From: Escherichia coli
Lineage (GTDB): Bacteria; Pseudomonadota; Gammaproteobacteria; Enterobacterales; Enterobacteriaceae
Direction: 5' to 3' (one strand)
NCBI GenBank assembly: GCA_031701365.1
Contig: GCA_031701365.1_4118.1
Length of the DNA stretch: 64,000 bases
The notes below the pieces were generated by a model. The model made no database searches. It saw only the letters and a list, made by a program, of their open reading frames with translations, and was not told the origin of the DNA. Shown piece by piece: positions 43,742 through 64,000 of this stretch (within the stretch, counting starts at the first letter, position 1; every line of letters begins with the position of its first letter). Made by a program: the position numbers and the translations under genes.

Positions 43742-44287
43742 ATGAATGAGATAGAATTATTAGCACACAAGATTAGTACAATAATGCTTATCCTAAATAA
43801 CAACCATCCTATATCGCAGATAGATGGAATCCTGAGTCAGAGGACAGGTGGTAGTTTATATTTGACATTAACAGAGGTTATCGCAAGGAATTACATTGAT
43901 ATTGAAATCGAGAACAGTGATGCATCAGGAAAGGTTGATGTAGGTGCATTAATCAGTTCAAATCCAGTATCAGCATCCCCATTGACCAAAGGTGTTAGTA
44001 CAGGATTCGAAGGGTATTTGTGGTACAATACCAATGATGATTATTTTATATATCAGCATTCCAATACAAATTATGATGAAGACAAATTTCAGTTCATAGA
44101 CCCTTATGATGAAGCTGAAGTATTTCAAAAATCATTAATCACAAAACCGCATGAGATGATGTATCTAATGTTATTCAGTACAATGCATTTGAATCCATTA
44201 ATTAAAGGTTTAAAATTTTATATTCAATTGAAATTAGTCCATGTAGTTTATGATTTATTAATGCAAGGATATAGTTATGAAGTATAA
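43742..44287 (+). CDS. protein of paralog family C
   Basis: 181 aa; core DEAEVFQKSLI. Confidence 0.6.
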   Translation: MNEIELLAHKISTIMLILNNNHPISQIDGILSQRTGGSLYLTLTEVIARNYIDIEIENSDASGKVDVGALISSNPVSASPLTKGVSTGFEGYLWYNTNDDYFIYQHSNTNYDEDKFQFIDPYDEAEVFQKSLITKPHEMMYLMLFSTMHLNPLIKGLKFYIQLKLVHVVYDLLMQGYSYEV

Positions 44288-44588
44288 AATGATGTATACC
44301 CCAGATATGATTTATGTTGAATTAGAAGATGATGACGATGGGTGGAATTTGATTTATTCAAGAAGTTCAGGTTGGTACATGGCACATTTAAATGATTCGA
44401 TAGTTACAGATTATTTTGTAGATTTCAATACATTATCCGATGAAGAATTGTTCCAACAGCAATTAGTAATTGACACGGGTGGTTATGATGTTTTATTATT
44501 AAAAAAGATACAGAAAGCTGTTATTGATTTTAAGCCCAAGATGTTGCAAAGGAAATATTATGACCTCGAAGTACCGTACCAGCAATGA
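44277..44588 (+). CDS. protein of paralog family C
   Basis: 103 aa; core DEELFQQQLVID. Confidence 0.6.
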   Translation: MKYKMMYTPDMIYVELEDDDDGWNLIYSRSSGWYMAHLNDSIVTDYFVDFNTLSDEELFQQQLVIDTGGYDVLLLKKIQKAVIDFKPKMLQRKYYDLEVPYQQ

Positions 44589-45126
44589 AATTCAGTACAC
44601 CTACGCTAATGCAATCATTATGGGACAAAAGTTAGCTTGTATTGTTGCAGCCTTATATAATGCCCAGAAATATCACAAGCGTCATTTCCACAAATGTATT
44701 GGTATTATTCCATCGAAGTACAATACATATATTGCGTGCACGAGTCATTTTGATAAACGATTCAATACACCTGATACCCCAAATGCCAGTAGTGTTATTG
44801 GTCTTTTGGATTTCGCACCTGGTGCTGTTATTGGAAAGAATGATTTAGAGTACGCATGGTATAATAAAAATGCACCGTTAGTAATGGTAAAATATGATAC
44901 AGAAACGAACAAAACAATAGAGTACAATACATATAAATCAGAGGAAGAATTTTTCCAAGGTTCATTGCTTGTGCCAGTGCGTTTGTTGTTTTATAATGTC
45001 CTTATTAGTACAGTACACAATAGTCCATTACACAAGAATCACAAAATTAATTTCAATTTTTGTGCTTATGCGATTGATGGTGTGTATGAGTGTTTAATGG
45101 AGGTATTGAGTTATGAAGCTGAATAA
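44560..45126 (+). CDS. protein of paralog family C
   Basis: start placed at MTSKYRTS (SD AAGGAAA); core EEEFFQGSLLV. Confidence 0.6.
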   Translation: MTSKYRTSNEIQYTYANAIIMGQKLACIVAALYNAQKYHKRHFHKCIGIIPSKYNTYIACTSHFDKRFNTPDTPNASSVIGLLDFAPGAVIGKNDLEYAWYNKNAPLVMVKYDTETNKTIEYNTYKSEEEFFQGSLLVPVRLLFYNVLISTVHNSPLHKNHKINFNFCAYAIDGVYECLMEVLSYEAE

Positions 45127-45454
45127 TACATTTGATATTAATAAGTTAAGAGAATGGTTTTATAGTATTGAAATTGAAGCCATCCCGTATCATAGATATG
45201 AACAATATAATTTAACCAGTATTGATATCAGTGAGTTGTACGCGTATTATCAAAGTGCATTAGAGATGCATAAGTTATTTTTGAGTACAGATTTTGTTCT
45301 AAATTACAATTTTGAGGAATTTAATAATTATAATTTAGTACAGAAATATGTAGTAGCAAAGTATATGTACCTTCAAGGAATTACAAGTAATTTGGAATTC
45401 AATACAGTCCTTGCTTTAGTTGAGGTAATTTTATGCAGTACATGTATGATTTAG
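45113..45454 (+). CDS. hypothetical protein in family C array
   Basis: 113 aa; weak motif ELYAYYQSAL. Confidence 0.5.
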   Translation: MKLNNTFDINKLREWFYSIEIEAIPYHRYEQYNLTSIDISELYAYYQSALEMHKLFLSTDFVLNYNFEEFNNYNLVQKYVVAKYMYLQGITSNLEFNTVLALVEVILCSTCMI

Positions 45455-45939
45455 AGTTTAGTTTAGATGCTGCCTTTAAATTTGTTCACAAGATAGAAAC
45501 AATATACAGTACATTATGTGCAATAAAATCAGTAACAGAAGAGCTTGATGTTGGTGAAAAATATCAGGTATGGAATAATACATTTCTAAACAAAGAACGT
45601 TGCTCTACGGGGTTTAATATTTTAACATTTAATCCCAGCAATTGTTACCCAGAGAAGCATGAACGTTATCCGAATGACGACATGTGGTTTGATTACACAA
45701 AAGATGGTGATATGTCATCCCTTGTAGTTCCTGATGATTTTAATGCCGAAGATTTAACGGAAGAGTGGTGGTTTCAACAGAATTTAGTACACGATGATAT
45801 TGATTTATTTTTTTATGTAGTATTTAAAATGCTTTACCACAACAATATATTAAAAGATAGTGTGTTTTTTTCATGTCTATATATTGATGATTTGTACAAT
45901 GAAATCCAAATCAACATACCCAGAACGCCTGTATCGTAA
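45433..45939 (+). CDS. protein of paralog family C
   Basis: 168 aa; core TEEWWFQQNLVHDD. Confidence 0.6.
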   Translation: MQYMYDLEFSLDAAFKFVHKIETIYSTLCAIKSVTEELDVGEKYQVWNNTFLNKERCSTGFNILTFNPSNCYPEKHERYPNDDMWFDYTKDGDMSSLVVPDDFNAEDLTEEWWFQQNLVHDDIDLFFYVVFKMLYHNNILKDSVFFSCLYIDDLYNEIQINIPRTPVS

Positions 45940-45964
45940 GATATGGGCTTTTTTCGTTTTGGTA

Positions 45965-45993
45965 TTGACAAAGAAGTGCAAAGCTGTTATCAT
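45965..45993 (+). promoter_or_regulatory. sigma70-like internal promoter
   Basis: TTGACA-17-TATCAT ahead of SD AAGGAG. Confidence 0.45.
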
Positions 45994-62035: not shown

Positions 62036-62060
62036 AGACCCGTATGGGTCTTTTTGTGTT
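62036..62060 (+). terminator. rho-independent terminator
   Basis: GACCC-GTAT-GGGTC followed by TTTTTGTGTTT. Confidence 0.7.
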
Positions 62061-62122
62061 TATGGCTTTACAAGAGCATTCAGGTGTGTTATACTTGATT
62101 TTAACTAGAGTTGGAGGAATCT

Positions 62123-62689
62123 ATGAGTACTGAATTAATTAAAGAAGTCACATTACTTCTGAAGCATTGTTTTAAGTTCATTCCTGATACTGGCTCACGC
62201 CAGTACATTAAAGTTAATGAGAAATATAACATCAATATCCTTGTATCTGAAACTGCGAGCAGTTATGCTAACATTGAGTTGGATTCTGAAGAAAAATATA
62301 CAGTATTACAAATCATAGCAGATGTACAACGTAAACAAGATTATCGTTCTTCATTTTACAACGATTATCTGTGTGTTTGCTCAAACTTCAGTGAGAATAA
62401 AATTGTGTATAAGAATTTATACACACATGAAGTGATTGATACATATAATTATAAAATTTCATCTGATGAATACAATGTTCTAATGTTCAACGCAAACCTT
62501 TTGTATGATGCCAGTACTGTACGCTGTTTAGAGTTAGCATATAAAATTCCAAAGATCATGGAAAGAAAAGATTTGATTCACTTTAAAACTATTTTAAAAT
62601 ACAGTACAAAAGAATTAGAGGATTTAGTACAGGCTCTTAAGAATTTCATTAATGAACATGTACCTGTTAAATTCGAGGATGCACAATGA
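62123..62689 (+). CDS. hypothetical protein, family C-like
   Basis: start placed at MSTELIKEV (SD GGAGGA); weak core EYNVLMFNANLLYD. Confidence 0.55.
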   Translation: MSTELIKEVTLLLKHCFKFIPDTGSRQYIKVNEKYNINILVSETASSYANIELDSEEKYTVLQIIADVQRKQDYRSSFYNDYLCVCSNFSENKIVYKNLYTHEVIDTYNYKISSDEYNVLMFNANLLYDASTVRCLELAYKIPKIMERKDLIHFKTILKYSTKELEDLVQALKNFINEHVPVKFEDAQ

Positions 62690-63270
62690 ACCATATCAGA
62701 ACTAAAATTTTGAGACTCATGCATGACATTGCAGAACTTTCAGAGATTCATGACATTACGGAAATTGTTGAATTTGATAATTATCGACTGAAAATTGAAA
62801 ACAAATCCAAACATCGTTTTGGTTCAGTTCAGTTGGATGTATATAAAACTTATGAATTTTCTAAAAAAATTAAAAGTTCATGGGATACGATTACTATGTA
62901 CATTCGCACATCCAGAAATCGTGAACGTATTGGTTCTATTTCTTCTAATATGGTATTTGCGAATGCATTACATGAAAAAATGAATAAAATTGTAGAATCT
63001 GATTTCAGTGAAGATGATGGTTTTATTGGGTTGGATGTTCCACCAGAATTAGACCAAAGTGAAGATATTCGAGATGCATTCATTTTCCAGAAATCATTGT
63101 TGGACAATTACAAAGAATTCGAGTACTTAATGCTTTGTTACGATACTGCAAAAATTCTTGATTGTGGTGAACTAGTTATGTACAATGATTTTATCAATTG
63201 CAAGACTGATGTTCTGAATACACTACTTCAAAATATAGAATCTGTTAAGGAAAAATATGAACGCTTATAG
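62686..63270 (+). CDS. protein of paralog family C
   Basis: 194 aa; ATGA overlap; core IRDAFIFQKSLLDNY. Confidence 0.6.
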   Translation: MNHIRTKILRLMHDIAELSEIHDITEIVEFDNYRLKIENKSKHRFGSVQLDVYKTYEFSKKIKSSWDTITMYIRTSRNRERIGSISSNMVFANALHEKMNKIVESDFSEDDGFIGLDVPPELDQSEDIRDAFIFQKSLLDNYKEFEYLMLCYDTAKILDCGELVMYNDFINCKTDVLNTLLQNIESVKEKYERL

Positions 63271-63838
63271 TTATATGACAGAACGCCATCAGTTATTATA
63301 TGATATCAGTAAAAAAATGCTATCAATTGTTGGTAGTGCGAAAGAAATTGAAAAACAATATCTCATCCGTGATGTATCAATTTCATCTAAATGTTGGTCA
63401 AATGAATATTACGACCACGGTATTCTTACTATTTCTGGGGCCAGAAATATTTGTATTGTAAAAAATAAAAGTAAAAGTAATGAAGAGTGTGAGATTAGAA
63501 CCGATATACAAATTAAGGATGATGGAAGTTTTTCACATCACCCATTCCATATTAGTACTGTTGGTGTTTTATATAATATTAAAGTACTATTCGGTGATGA
63601 AGAGTATGTGTTAAAAGCTATCAATCCAGATTCAAGTACAGTTGAAGAAGAACTGTTCCAGATGAGCACTGTTATACCTGAAGAGGTTCTTAGTACTGTT
63701 GTTTTTTGTAGTTTAATTTATCATGAATACAAAAAGAACCAATTCGATTTCCACATTTTAGGAACGTACATCTTCAATACTTTGAATGTTGATCGTTTAA
63801 AAGCATTAAATGCAGCAATGGATAAGGTGCTACAATGA
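63257..63838 (+). CDS. protein of paralog family C
   Basis: 193 aa; core VEEELFQMSTVIPEE. Confidence 0.6.
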   Translation: MNAYSYMTERHQLLYDISKKMLSIVGSAKEIEKQYLIRDVSISSKCWSNEYYDHGILTISGARNICIVKNKSKSNEECEIRTDIQIKDDGSFSHHPFHISTVGVLYNIKVLFGDEEYVLKAINPDSSTVEEELFQMSTVIPEEVLSTVVFCSLIYHEYKKNQFDFHILGTYIFNTLNVDRLKALNAAMDKVLQ

Positions 63839-64000
63839 CAAGAGATGATTGTTTGTACATATGGGATATAATTGAAACTACACTTTCAAATCCAGAAAAT
63901 TATAAAACAAAAAAAAGACAACGACACAAAATATGGATAGATTTGTTCGTTGAGGGCATACACGCAGTGACTATTTGGGATTCACCGAGGGCATCAGCAT
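63835..64000 (+). CDS. hypothetical protein (partial, continues beyond window)
   Basis: ATGA overlap with upstream stop; open to window end (MTRDDCLYIWDIIETT...). Confidence 0.45.
   Translation, partial: MTRDDCLYIWDIIETTLSNPENYKTKKRQRHKIWIDLFVEGIHAVTIWDSPRASA

Follow-up and report, generated by a model that had tools for sequence, protein, structure and literature searches.

In a 64,000-nucleotide stretch of DNA deposited as Escherichia coli (assembly GCA_031701365.1, contig GCA_031701365.1_4118.1), referred to here at its full length as the window, the region 43742-64000 is, as judged from its sequence, a lineage-specific expansion of one previously undescribed protein family, here named the FQ family. 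We recognise 37 solid members, 35 of them within 43742-64000 and two more at 41597-42594, which share a short motif. The region shares 97.7% identity with Escherichia phage 121Q (Asteriusvirus, 348.5 kb), and sequence comparison places the window in an Asteriusvirus genome, i.e. that of a RaK2-like jumbo coliphage of about 350 kb. More than 20 kb of the window is FQ family, and about 30 kb (~8% of a 350-kb genome) if the weaker members seen in 121Q are counted. With a rough probability of 0.45, the array would encode a set of stoichiometric binders that are expressed early and serve host takeover or anti-defence, all sharing a scaffold but with diversified surfaces.

The first-pass annotation of this DNA had proposed a very large tandem family of about 40 copies with an FQ core. 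The family is real, and its count needed correction. A hidden Markov model (HMM) built from the 35 motif-bearing open reading frames (ORFs), the seed HMM, also recovers two non-seed ORFs in which the motif Ser is replaced by Ala (50043-50468 and 50821-51180), giving the total of 37. A second model made mostly from external homologues (the external HMM, with a reporting cut-off of E 0.1) recovers the same 37 members at E <= 6e-6. In pairwise phmmer comparisons, 34 of the 37 reach E <= 2e-4 to their best paralog in the window or to a member in Klebsiella phage Muenster, so membership is not circular for most copies. The weak cases are ORF 47051 (1.5e-3), ORF 62686 (3e-3) and ORF 54552, which scores 7e-3 to a window paralog but 2.6e-6 to a Muenster member. 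A regular expression for the motif matches 37 times in the + strand frames, with just two of these matches outside member genes (41.8-63.7 kb); across the full 64 kb, the three - strand frames yield only two matches.

In an alignment of the 37 sequences, F and Q alone are invariant and mean column identity is 12%; identity to the protein of 51190-51660 ranges from 11 to 52% across paralogs. Over 176 family proteins in public data the consensus is [ST]-E-E-x-[YL]-F-Q-x-S-[LT]-[VIL]-[YHFW]-[DN], in which positions -2 and +2 vary freely and positions -1, 0, +3 and +4 are conserved. Different copies use AGT, AGC or TCA for the motif Ser, and the codons for F and Q vary too, which shows that conservation of the motif acts at the protein level. 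The members are listed below, with E values from the seed HMM unless marked as external; two were modelled with AlphaFold2, for which the predicted local distance difference test score (pLDDT) is given.

41597-41941, + strand: short member, outlier upstream of the main array (8e-21, external 2.6e-13; motif PEEYFQESLVWD)
42274-42594, + strand: short member (8e-17; motif EEELFQYSLVYD; start taken from 121Q gp344)
43742-44287, + strand: long member (1e-24)
44277-44588, + strand: short member (4e-13; allele 58% identical to the 121Q orthologue)
44560-45126, + strand: long member (5e-29)
45433-45939, + strand: long member (2e-27)
46022-46534, + strand: long member, GTG start after AAGGAG (3e-21)
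46555-47058, + strand: long member (2e-23)
47060-47674, + strand: long, divergent member (4e-17, external 6e-6)
47878-48393, + strand: long member (7e-26)
48390-48734, + strand: short member, motif RFQYETAYD (4e-12)
48745-49296, + strand: long member (3e-22)
50091-50468, + strand: short non-seed member, motif Ser to Ala (5e-5, external 9e-14)
50468-50824, + strand: short member (4e-16)
50821-51180, + strand: short non-seed member, motif Ser to Ala (2e-6, external 2e-10)
51190-51660, + strand: long member (seed HMM; AlphaFold2 target, pLDDT 87.6)
51662-52132, + strand: long member (4e-27)
52129-52569, + strand: long member (4e-28)
52572-53060, + strand: long member (3e-36)
53038-53490, + strand: long member (3e-34)
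53487-53801, + strand: short member (3e-10)
54106-54555, + strand: long member, motif EEGYFQGS (2e-24)
54555-55088, + strand: long, divergent member, motif DEQCFQLSCTD (4e-17, external 1.5e-8)
55443-56003, + strand: long member (3e-23)
56602-56964, + strand: short member (seed HMM; AlphaFold2 target, pLDDT 72.3)
56954-57331, + strand: member (9e-19)
57310-57651, + strand: short member (4e-12)
57659-58195, + strand: long member (8e-23)
58255-58731, + strand: long member (4e-27)
58728-59222, + strand: long member, motif EEMYFQGS (3e-29)
59215-59550, + strand: short member (1e-19)
59534-59947, + strand: short member (5e-14)
59947-60438, + strand: long member (1e-29)
60961-61524, + strand: long member, clearest cross-genus orthologue (Muenster L003 27913-28521, with E 3e-16 to that gene)
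61517-62035, + strand: long member (5e-20)
62686-63270, + strand: long, divergent member (8e-15, external 6e-7)
63257-63838, + strand: long member, last complete one in the window (2e-18)

Almost every gene of the array had been taken for a paralog. The array is indeed dense, although eight ORFs or ORF stretches within it are not detectable members (45113-45454, 47676-47870, 49309-49892, 53801-54109, 55066-55453, 55994-56596, 60422-60964 and 62111-62689). By eye, 55994-56596, 60422-60964 and 62111-62689 look like degenerate copies with FT, FS and FN in place of FQ, without statistical support; local hhalign of such non-family ORFs is insensitive, as known weak members scored only 16-85% probability. 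A gene at 13218-13889 that had been put forward as related is marginal only. Two candidates outside the count of 37 are as follows.

13218-13889, + strand: marginal, possibly degenerate member, motif EEELFMYSTVI with Q to M (seed HMM E 0.12, external HMM E 0.019; hhalign P 2.6e-4, aligned over the motif only)
62111-62689, + strand: possible degenerate member, MFNANLLYD, not statistically supported (seed HMM E 0.036, external HMM E >0.1; hhalign aligns the motif region, P 0.13)

Beyond the end of the window the array runs on in 121Q, with about 5-7 more weak members up to ~L001 29.2 kb and two isolated weak matches near L001 40-41 kb.

The idea that the array is an artefact, i.e. a collapsed or expanded repeat assembly or non-coding DNA with chance ORFs, can be virtually dismissed. 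The same gene order recurs in 36 records of phages from E. coli and Salmonella, of which ten cover at least 80% of the region in one piece, and more than 30 of these genomes were sequenced independently. DNA repeat comparison found no near-identical repeats in the array, the maximum being 76% identity over 218 nt, so collapse or expansion during assembly is no concern. The ratio of nonsynonymous to synonymous substitution (ω) stays far below 1 for the 34 members compared with their orthologues in the related phage WPEC3, and both modelled members have confident predicted folds. On these grounds an assembly artefact, raised at the outset as a result that could undo the observation, is excluded.

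The ORF listing shows a nearly gap-free + strand run of ORFs of 100-220 amino acids (aa). With the gene coordinates of 121Q the coding density of the array is 98.6% and 36 of 57 gene junctions overlap, 12 by 4 nt (ATGA type) and five by 1 nt, in agreement with the translational coupling described earlier. No tRNA or Rfam RNA was found within the 64-kb window. Many Asteriusvirus contigs of ~350 kb have been deposited as 'Escherichia coli' in draft assemblies, and two fragments are labelled Actinomadura. Yet none of the 5,426 complete E. coli genomes in RefSeq matches a 3.8-kb segment of the array that was used as query, which suggests contamination or a carrier state rather than integration. 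The Sharanji record, with its reported 20.7-kb terminal repeat, was considered for locating the array relative to the genome ends and was set aside, being an arbitrarily broken circular assembly that gives no information on this point.

The family has no counterpart among characterised proteins in any of the resources searched, as the first-pass annotation had supposed. Scans of all 37 members against Pfam, NCBIfam and PADLOC gave scattered single matches at E 0.0015-0.18, none common to two members; a profile search of all PDB sequences gave no match at E <= 10; and Foldseek against the PDB returned nothing (best E 1.3). Against viral models Foldseek found only uncharacterised proteins of 121Q, SP27, RaK2, GAP32, Serratia phage BF and slurp01. 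In PHROGs the family is scattered over at least 11 separate clusters of unknown function, among them phrog_9317, 12674, 13866, 15629, 33987, 22855, 38467 and 31297. Of ten members tested, nine have a match to a single cluster at E 1e-50 to 1e-144, the exception being 41597-41941 with no better than 2e-7, and there are weaker cross-matches to sister clusters that already hinted at a superfamily; these cluster matches carry no functional information. The immunity proteins of the SUKH and Imm families were also considered and rejected, as neither a SUKH-type α+β fold nor an Imm family profile was found.

An exhaustive HMM scan of 1.84 billion cluster representatives yielded only 154 at E <= 1e-3. 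All ten clusters checked from that scan came from Asteriusvirus phages or from ~350-kb contigs labelled E. coli, and a ~28-kb metagenomic contig with a distant match is another Asteriusvirus fragment. In the literature we found neither the unifying motif nor the fold described, and nothing on conservation across genera or on how large the family really is, only generic statements on paralogs; about 10% of RaK2 gene products, for example, have been reported to be paralogues (PMC3622015). The genes themselves had been deposited as hypothetical proteins and lie in scattered PHROGs clusters.

FQ members are proteins of 100-200 aa in two size classes, short and long. AlphaFold2 was run for one member of each, 51190-51660 (long, on the paralog alignment) and 56602-56964 (short). 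The long protein (pLDDT 87.6; predicted template modelling score, pTM, 0.83) is modelled as an N-terminal helix, five β-strands, a short helix, the motif helix (residues 106-113), a long helix (118-132), a strand and a C-terminal helix, and the short one (pLDDT 72.3) as five strands, the motif helix (64-74), a long helix and a terminal strand. The predicted fold is α/β, an antiparallel sheet being followed by the motif helix, a long helix and a strand at the end. As both modelled forms have it, the common core would be sheet, motif helix, helix and strand, to which the long forms add N- and C-terminal helices.

The motif helix, [ST]EExΦFQxS[LT]Φ[YFHW][DN], is the sole conserved element across the family and the best-ordered part of both models, with a block pLDDT of 95-97 in the long protein and 95 in the short one, where confidence is highest. 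The earlier question of whether the motif is a buried strand or an exposed loop thus receives a different answer, an ordered helix in both predictions. From helical periodicity, the conserved positions fit one buried face of that helix, and the flanking S/T and D/N fit helix caps. We read the motif as the probable structural keystone of a shared scaffold, but the invariant Gln could mark a common ligand or partner site.

The same models bear on the possibility that the motif is a cleavage site or degron for a 3C-type, tobacco etch virus (TEV)-type or other protease. The TEV site is ENLYFQ(G/S) and the 3C site LEVLFQ/GP, and EExYFQxS resembles both. Two of the 37 members (EEGYFQGS and EEMYFQGS) fit ExxYxQ(G/S) exactly and a third, EEEFFQGS, comes close. 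In most copies, however, P1' is variable (Y, Q, L, E, N, K), conservation is just as high in the residues that follow, S-[LT]-Φ-[YFHW]-[DN], and the segment is a helix and the most confidently ordered part of both models rather than an exposed linker. Ten ORFs outside the array were scanned and none is a recognisable 3C-like protease; the search did not extend to the remainder of the genome. We regard this explanation as very improbable, and a TEV/3C cleavage site as such is rejected because so few members fit the full consensus, P1' varies and the segment is predicted as a high-confidence helix.

Most members are acidic. Their median isoelectric point (pI) is 4.74, against 6.54 for other + strand ORFs (Mann-Whitney p 3e-7), and their net charge is -10, or about -6.7 per 100 aa; seven of the 37 are neutral or basic as listed (pI 6.1-9.1). 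No membrane-spanning segments are predicted in members, hydrophobic stretches occurring only in spurious N-terminal ORF extensions, and no Cys/His metal-binding pattern was found in the family. A sub-case of the binder reading draws on the significantly greater acidity relative to neighbouring genes and on the early-type location, and has the proteins act as nucleic-acid mimics in the style of Ocr, ArdA and Arn, titrating DNA- or RNA-binding defence enzymes of the host, for example restriction systems or nucleases. We consider it rather unlikely, given the neutral and basic members and the fact that neither fold nor sequence resembles Ocr, ArdA, Arn or any other solved mimic. The acidity of FQ proteins is also moderate beside that of classical DNA mimics.

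The setting of the array is of early type. Near-perfect or perfect σ70 sites lie exactly in its few intergenic gaps, and two terminator-like hairpins are each followed by such a promoter, so that the single terminator first reported at 62036 is joined by a second. These elements are the following.

41974-42002, + strand: σ70-like promoter, TTGACA-17-TATAGT, 11/12, in an intergenic gap
45927-45993, + strand: terminator-like hairpin with T-run (45927-45948), then σ70-like promoter (45965-45993, 11/12)
58192-58221, + strand: perfect σ70 consensus promoter, TTGACA-18-TATAAT, 12/12, in the gap before 58255
62034-62095, + strand: terminator hairpin (62034-62053), then σ70-like promoter (62067-62095)

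Upstream of the array, 11 perfect TTGACA-N16/17-TATAAT sites occur on the + strand between 19.7 and 34.3 kb of the window. That number in 15 kb (19691-34312) is far beyond chance and would mark a strong early region of small ORFs. The promoter pattern resembles the signature of early transcription units dependent on host RNA polymerase, and the array genes are predicted to be of the early class.

Data on virions come from the literature on a close relative, phAPEC6, rather than from the phage of the window. Its virion proteome of 62 proteins lists no gene product between gp347 and gp549 (PMC7247149 Table 1). Family members in phAPEC6 are gp426c and gp442c, so FQ proteins are not detectable components of its virion. 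A role as structural accessory proteins, one of the candidates first suggested, is thereby disfavoured, and virion or internal head proteins are rejected. The other candidate role, in anti-defence or host takeover, is plausible in this context of early-type promoters and acidic, non-virion proteins without predicted membrane segments.

The expansion is old. In phage Muenster (Alcyoneusvirus, RaK2-like), some 32 members bearing this motif score E < 1e-3; they are located in the tens of kb after its annotated 20-kb terminal repeat and upstream of a conserved RNA ligase. Only 14 of the 37 window members have reciprocal best hits in Muenster, and similarity across genera is as low as that between paralogs. 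Together with the number of Muenster members, this indicates that the expansion predates the split of Asteriusvirus and Alcyoneusvirus. Younger sub-clusters exist at 50091-51180 and 51190-53490, and even there the copies are only 29-52% identical. The copies at 51190-53490 had been described as recent duplicates, near-identical over the core; near-identity holds across the motif only, and for neither the whole proteins nor the DNA.

Within the genus the copies are maintained individually. Phage WPEC3 (~83% nucleotide identity) has syntenic 1:1 orthologues of 34 of the 37 members, with amino-acid identities of 43-92% and ω of 0.07-0.53; the synonymous divergence (dS) ranges from 0.13 to 2.9 between neighbouring genes. 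Continuing duplication, as first envisaged, is not supported, the paralogs being old, retained one to one in WPEC3 for the most part and expanded likewise in Muenster. Divergence between orthologues is even along the protein (identity 0.62-0.81 per bin, highest around the motif) and shows no localised hypervariable patch, and no pairwise ω exceeded 1.

Most members are 97-100% identical to those of 121Q. Divergent alleles are found at 44277-44588 (58%), 41597-41941 (81%), 50465-50824 (84%) and 48390-48734 (87%), and 49668-49892 is also among the single genes that are 58-87% identical to 121Q beside neighbours of 97-100%. This pattern points to cassette-like allele replacement inside an otherwise near-identical region. 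Each paralog is under purifying selection, with patchy replacement by divergent alleles. 121Q has an extra short-form FQ copy (L001 9868-10236), lacking in the window (at ~50465); the same apparently applies to Sharanji. The alignments of many relatives break exactly at window position 50466, the site of this copy. In the distal FQ array, outside the window, lies a gene of 136-137 aa (121Q gp404, L001 26922-27335; Muenster gp123, L003 34162-34572) whose two versions are 59% identical, far more conserved than their FQ neighbours; Muenster gp123 is annotated in its record as a putative ADP-ribosyltransferase (HHpred 4GV2) and has no Pfam match.

Individual retention could also be expected if the paralogs built, or helped to assemble, a single large structure inside the cell that is not part of the virion, co-assembling through the motif face with translational coupling setting their stoichiometry. 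Tight coupling and co-transcription, 1:1 retention within the genus under purifying selection, and a single invariant motif that could serve as a homotypic interface would all suit such a structure. We nevertheless think it unlikely, as copy number varies among close relatives (one extra in 121Q, three without clear orthologues in WPEC3), the array holds two different size classes and reciprocal best hits between genera are few. Alleles as low as 43-58% identical have moreover been swapped at single positions, which is hard to fit to a co-evolved complex. Patchy allele exchange, together with early-type promoters and diversified non-virion products, would also suit inter-phage competition or superinfection exclusion, each paralog blocking a function of a different co-infecting phage; since the members lack the membrane or periplasmic targeting typical of many exclusion proteins, this appears improbable.

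We therefore return to the repertoire of binders proposed at the outset. Here the motif helix would be the structural keystone of a common scaffold whose remaining surface has diverged freely between paralogs. The members would be expressed early as stoichiometric binders, each neutralising or redirecting a different host factor, whether of defence or housekeeping, or a factor of a competitor. Several observations weigh against this. Early expression is based solely on promoter consensus and genomic context, and a Gln that never varies is not what a purely structural position usually shows; it could instead point to the shared site mentioned above. A strong arms race might predict the hypervariable patch or ω > 1 that the even divergence of orthologues does not show. 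Gene content is rather stable within the genus, unlike that of many anti-defence islands, and Foldseek against the PDB gave no fold similarity to any solved anti-defence protein.

Other features of the window lie around the array. On the - strand at 787-11661, about ten tandem ORFs of 358-433 aa form a second large paralog array; two of them were scanned and proved to be RCC1-like repeat (β-propeller) proteins (Pfam RCC1_2 / WD40_RLD). To judge by size and name, these ORFs are probably the ~40-kDa 'DNA condensation proteins' of phAPEC6 virions (gp003-010, gp549 and gp551). A third tandem family, of at least 15 ORFs of 63-96 aa with an LGTxxQE motif, occupies 36164-43023 directly upstream of the FQ array and 55066-55453, with two copies embedded in the FQ array; WPEC3 has a run of ~30 small genes (~65-95 aa) at this locus. 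A near-identical 28-nt hairpin, AAAGGGATTGACTC(C/A)GGTCAGTCCCTTT, is present in two copies at 30092-30119 and 32685-32712; its stem holds a TTGACT -35-like box, followed by TATTAT, and the hairpin may act as terminator and promoter in one. An 81-aa ORF (42032-42277) with a hydrophobic N-terminal segment (MLKFLNFLIVLCIVLGIAPFVLAYL...), which separates the two upstream FQ members and lies behind the promoter at 41974, probably encodes a small membrane or secreted protein. Within the FQ array, 49892-50090 is an unusually long non-coding gap that contains a G+C-rich inverted repeat (TTGACAGGCCGCTGGAGGGGGTCAA) and an A-run.

The FQ family is conserved across RaK2-like jumbo phages of no fewer than two genera, whose hosts are E. 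coli, Salmonella and Klebsiella. If its members are host-targeting binders, they would amount to a catalogue of some 40 or more inhibitors whose targets would show which host functions and defences are relevant to jumbo-phage infection. Such a library would help to explain how these phages cope with the diverse defence repertoires of enterobacteria, and would offer a new natural scaffold for engineered binders. A scaffold with no match among solved structures is of structural and engineering interest in itself. Several phages of this kind have been proposed for therapy, so the role of one-twelfth of their genome is of practical value. Even the negative results are of use for annotation, as 11 or more PHROGs clusters can be united in a single superfamily with the signature [ST]EExΦFQxS.

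Large viruses in which one family has expanded are already known, and the FQ array is a new and, for a phage, unusually large case of this. Bacillus phage G has a lineage-specific expansion of zinc ribbons with ~35 copies (Iyer et al. 2021, PMC7824862). In both jumbo phages one small domain has expanded to more than 30 copies; that of phage G is a recognisable Zn-ribbon predicted to bind DNA, whereas the FQ family has no recognisable domain. Large lytic phages have host-takeover modules, such as the terminal-redundancy module of SPO1 and the early or pre-early genes of T4 and T5, whose genes are small, mostly non-essential and driven by strong host-type promoters and whose products bind and inhibit host machinery; an FQ binder repertoire would be analogous to them in function. 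The FQ array is similar in being a dense cluster of small genes behind host-type promoters, but those modules consist of unrelated genes rather than one family expanded ~40-fold. The SUKH and Imm immunity proteins of polymorphic toxin systems each neutralise a different toxin by binding it, and their arrays likewise consist of small α+β proteins encoded by tandem, diverged paralogs.

Large eukaryotic DNA viruses also carry multigene families, such as MGF110, MGF360 and MGF505 of African swine fever virus and the host-range and Bcl-2-like families of poxviruses, which are thought to bind host defence factors. Like these, the FQ array consists of tens of tandem, highly diverged, non-structural paralogs that are individually maintained and whose copy content varies between strains. 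It differs in that folds and hosts are unrelated, that FQ genes lie in translationally coupled operons of bacterial type and that their function is putative. It is possible, and we suggest it tentatively, that the FQ family is a phage analogue of these multigene families, in which some 40 or more binders with an FQ-helix fold each disable a different immune or housekeeping target of the host.

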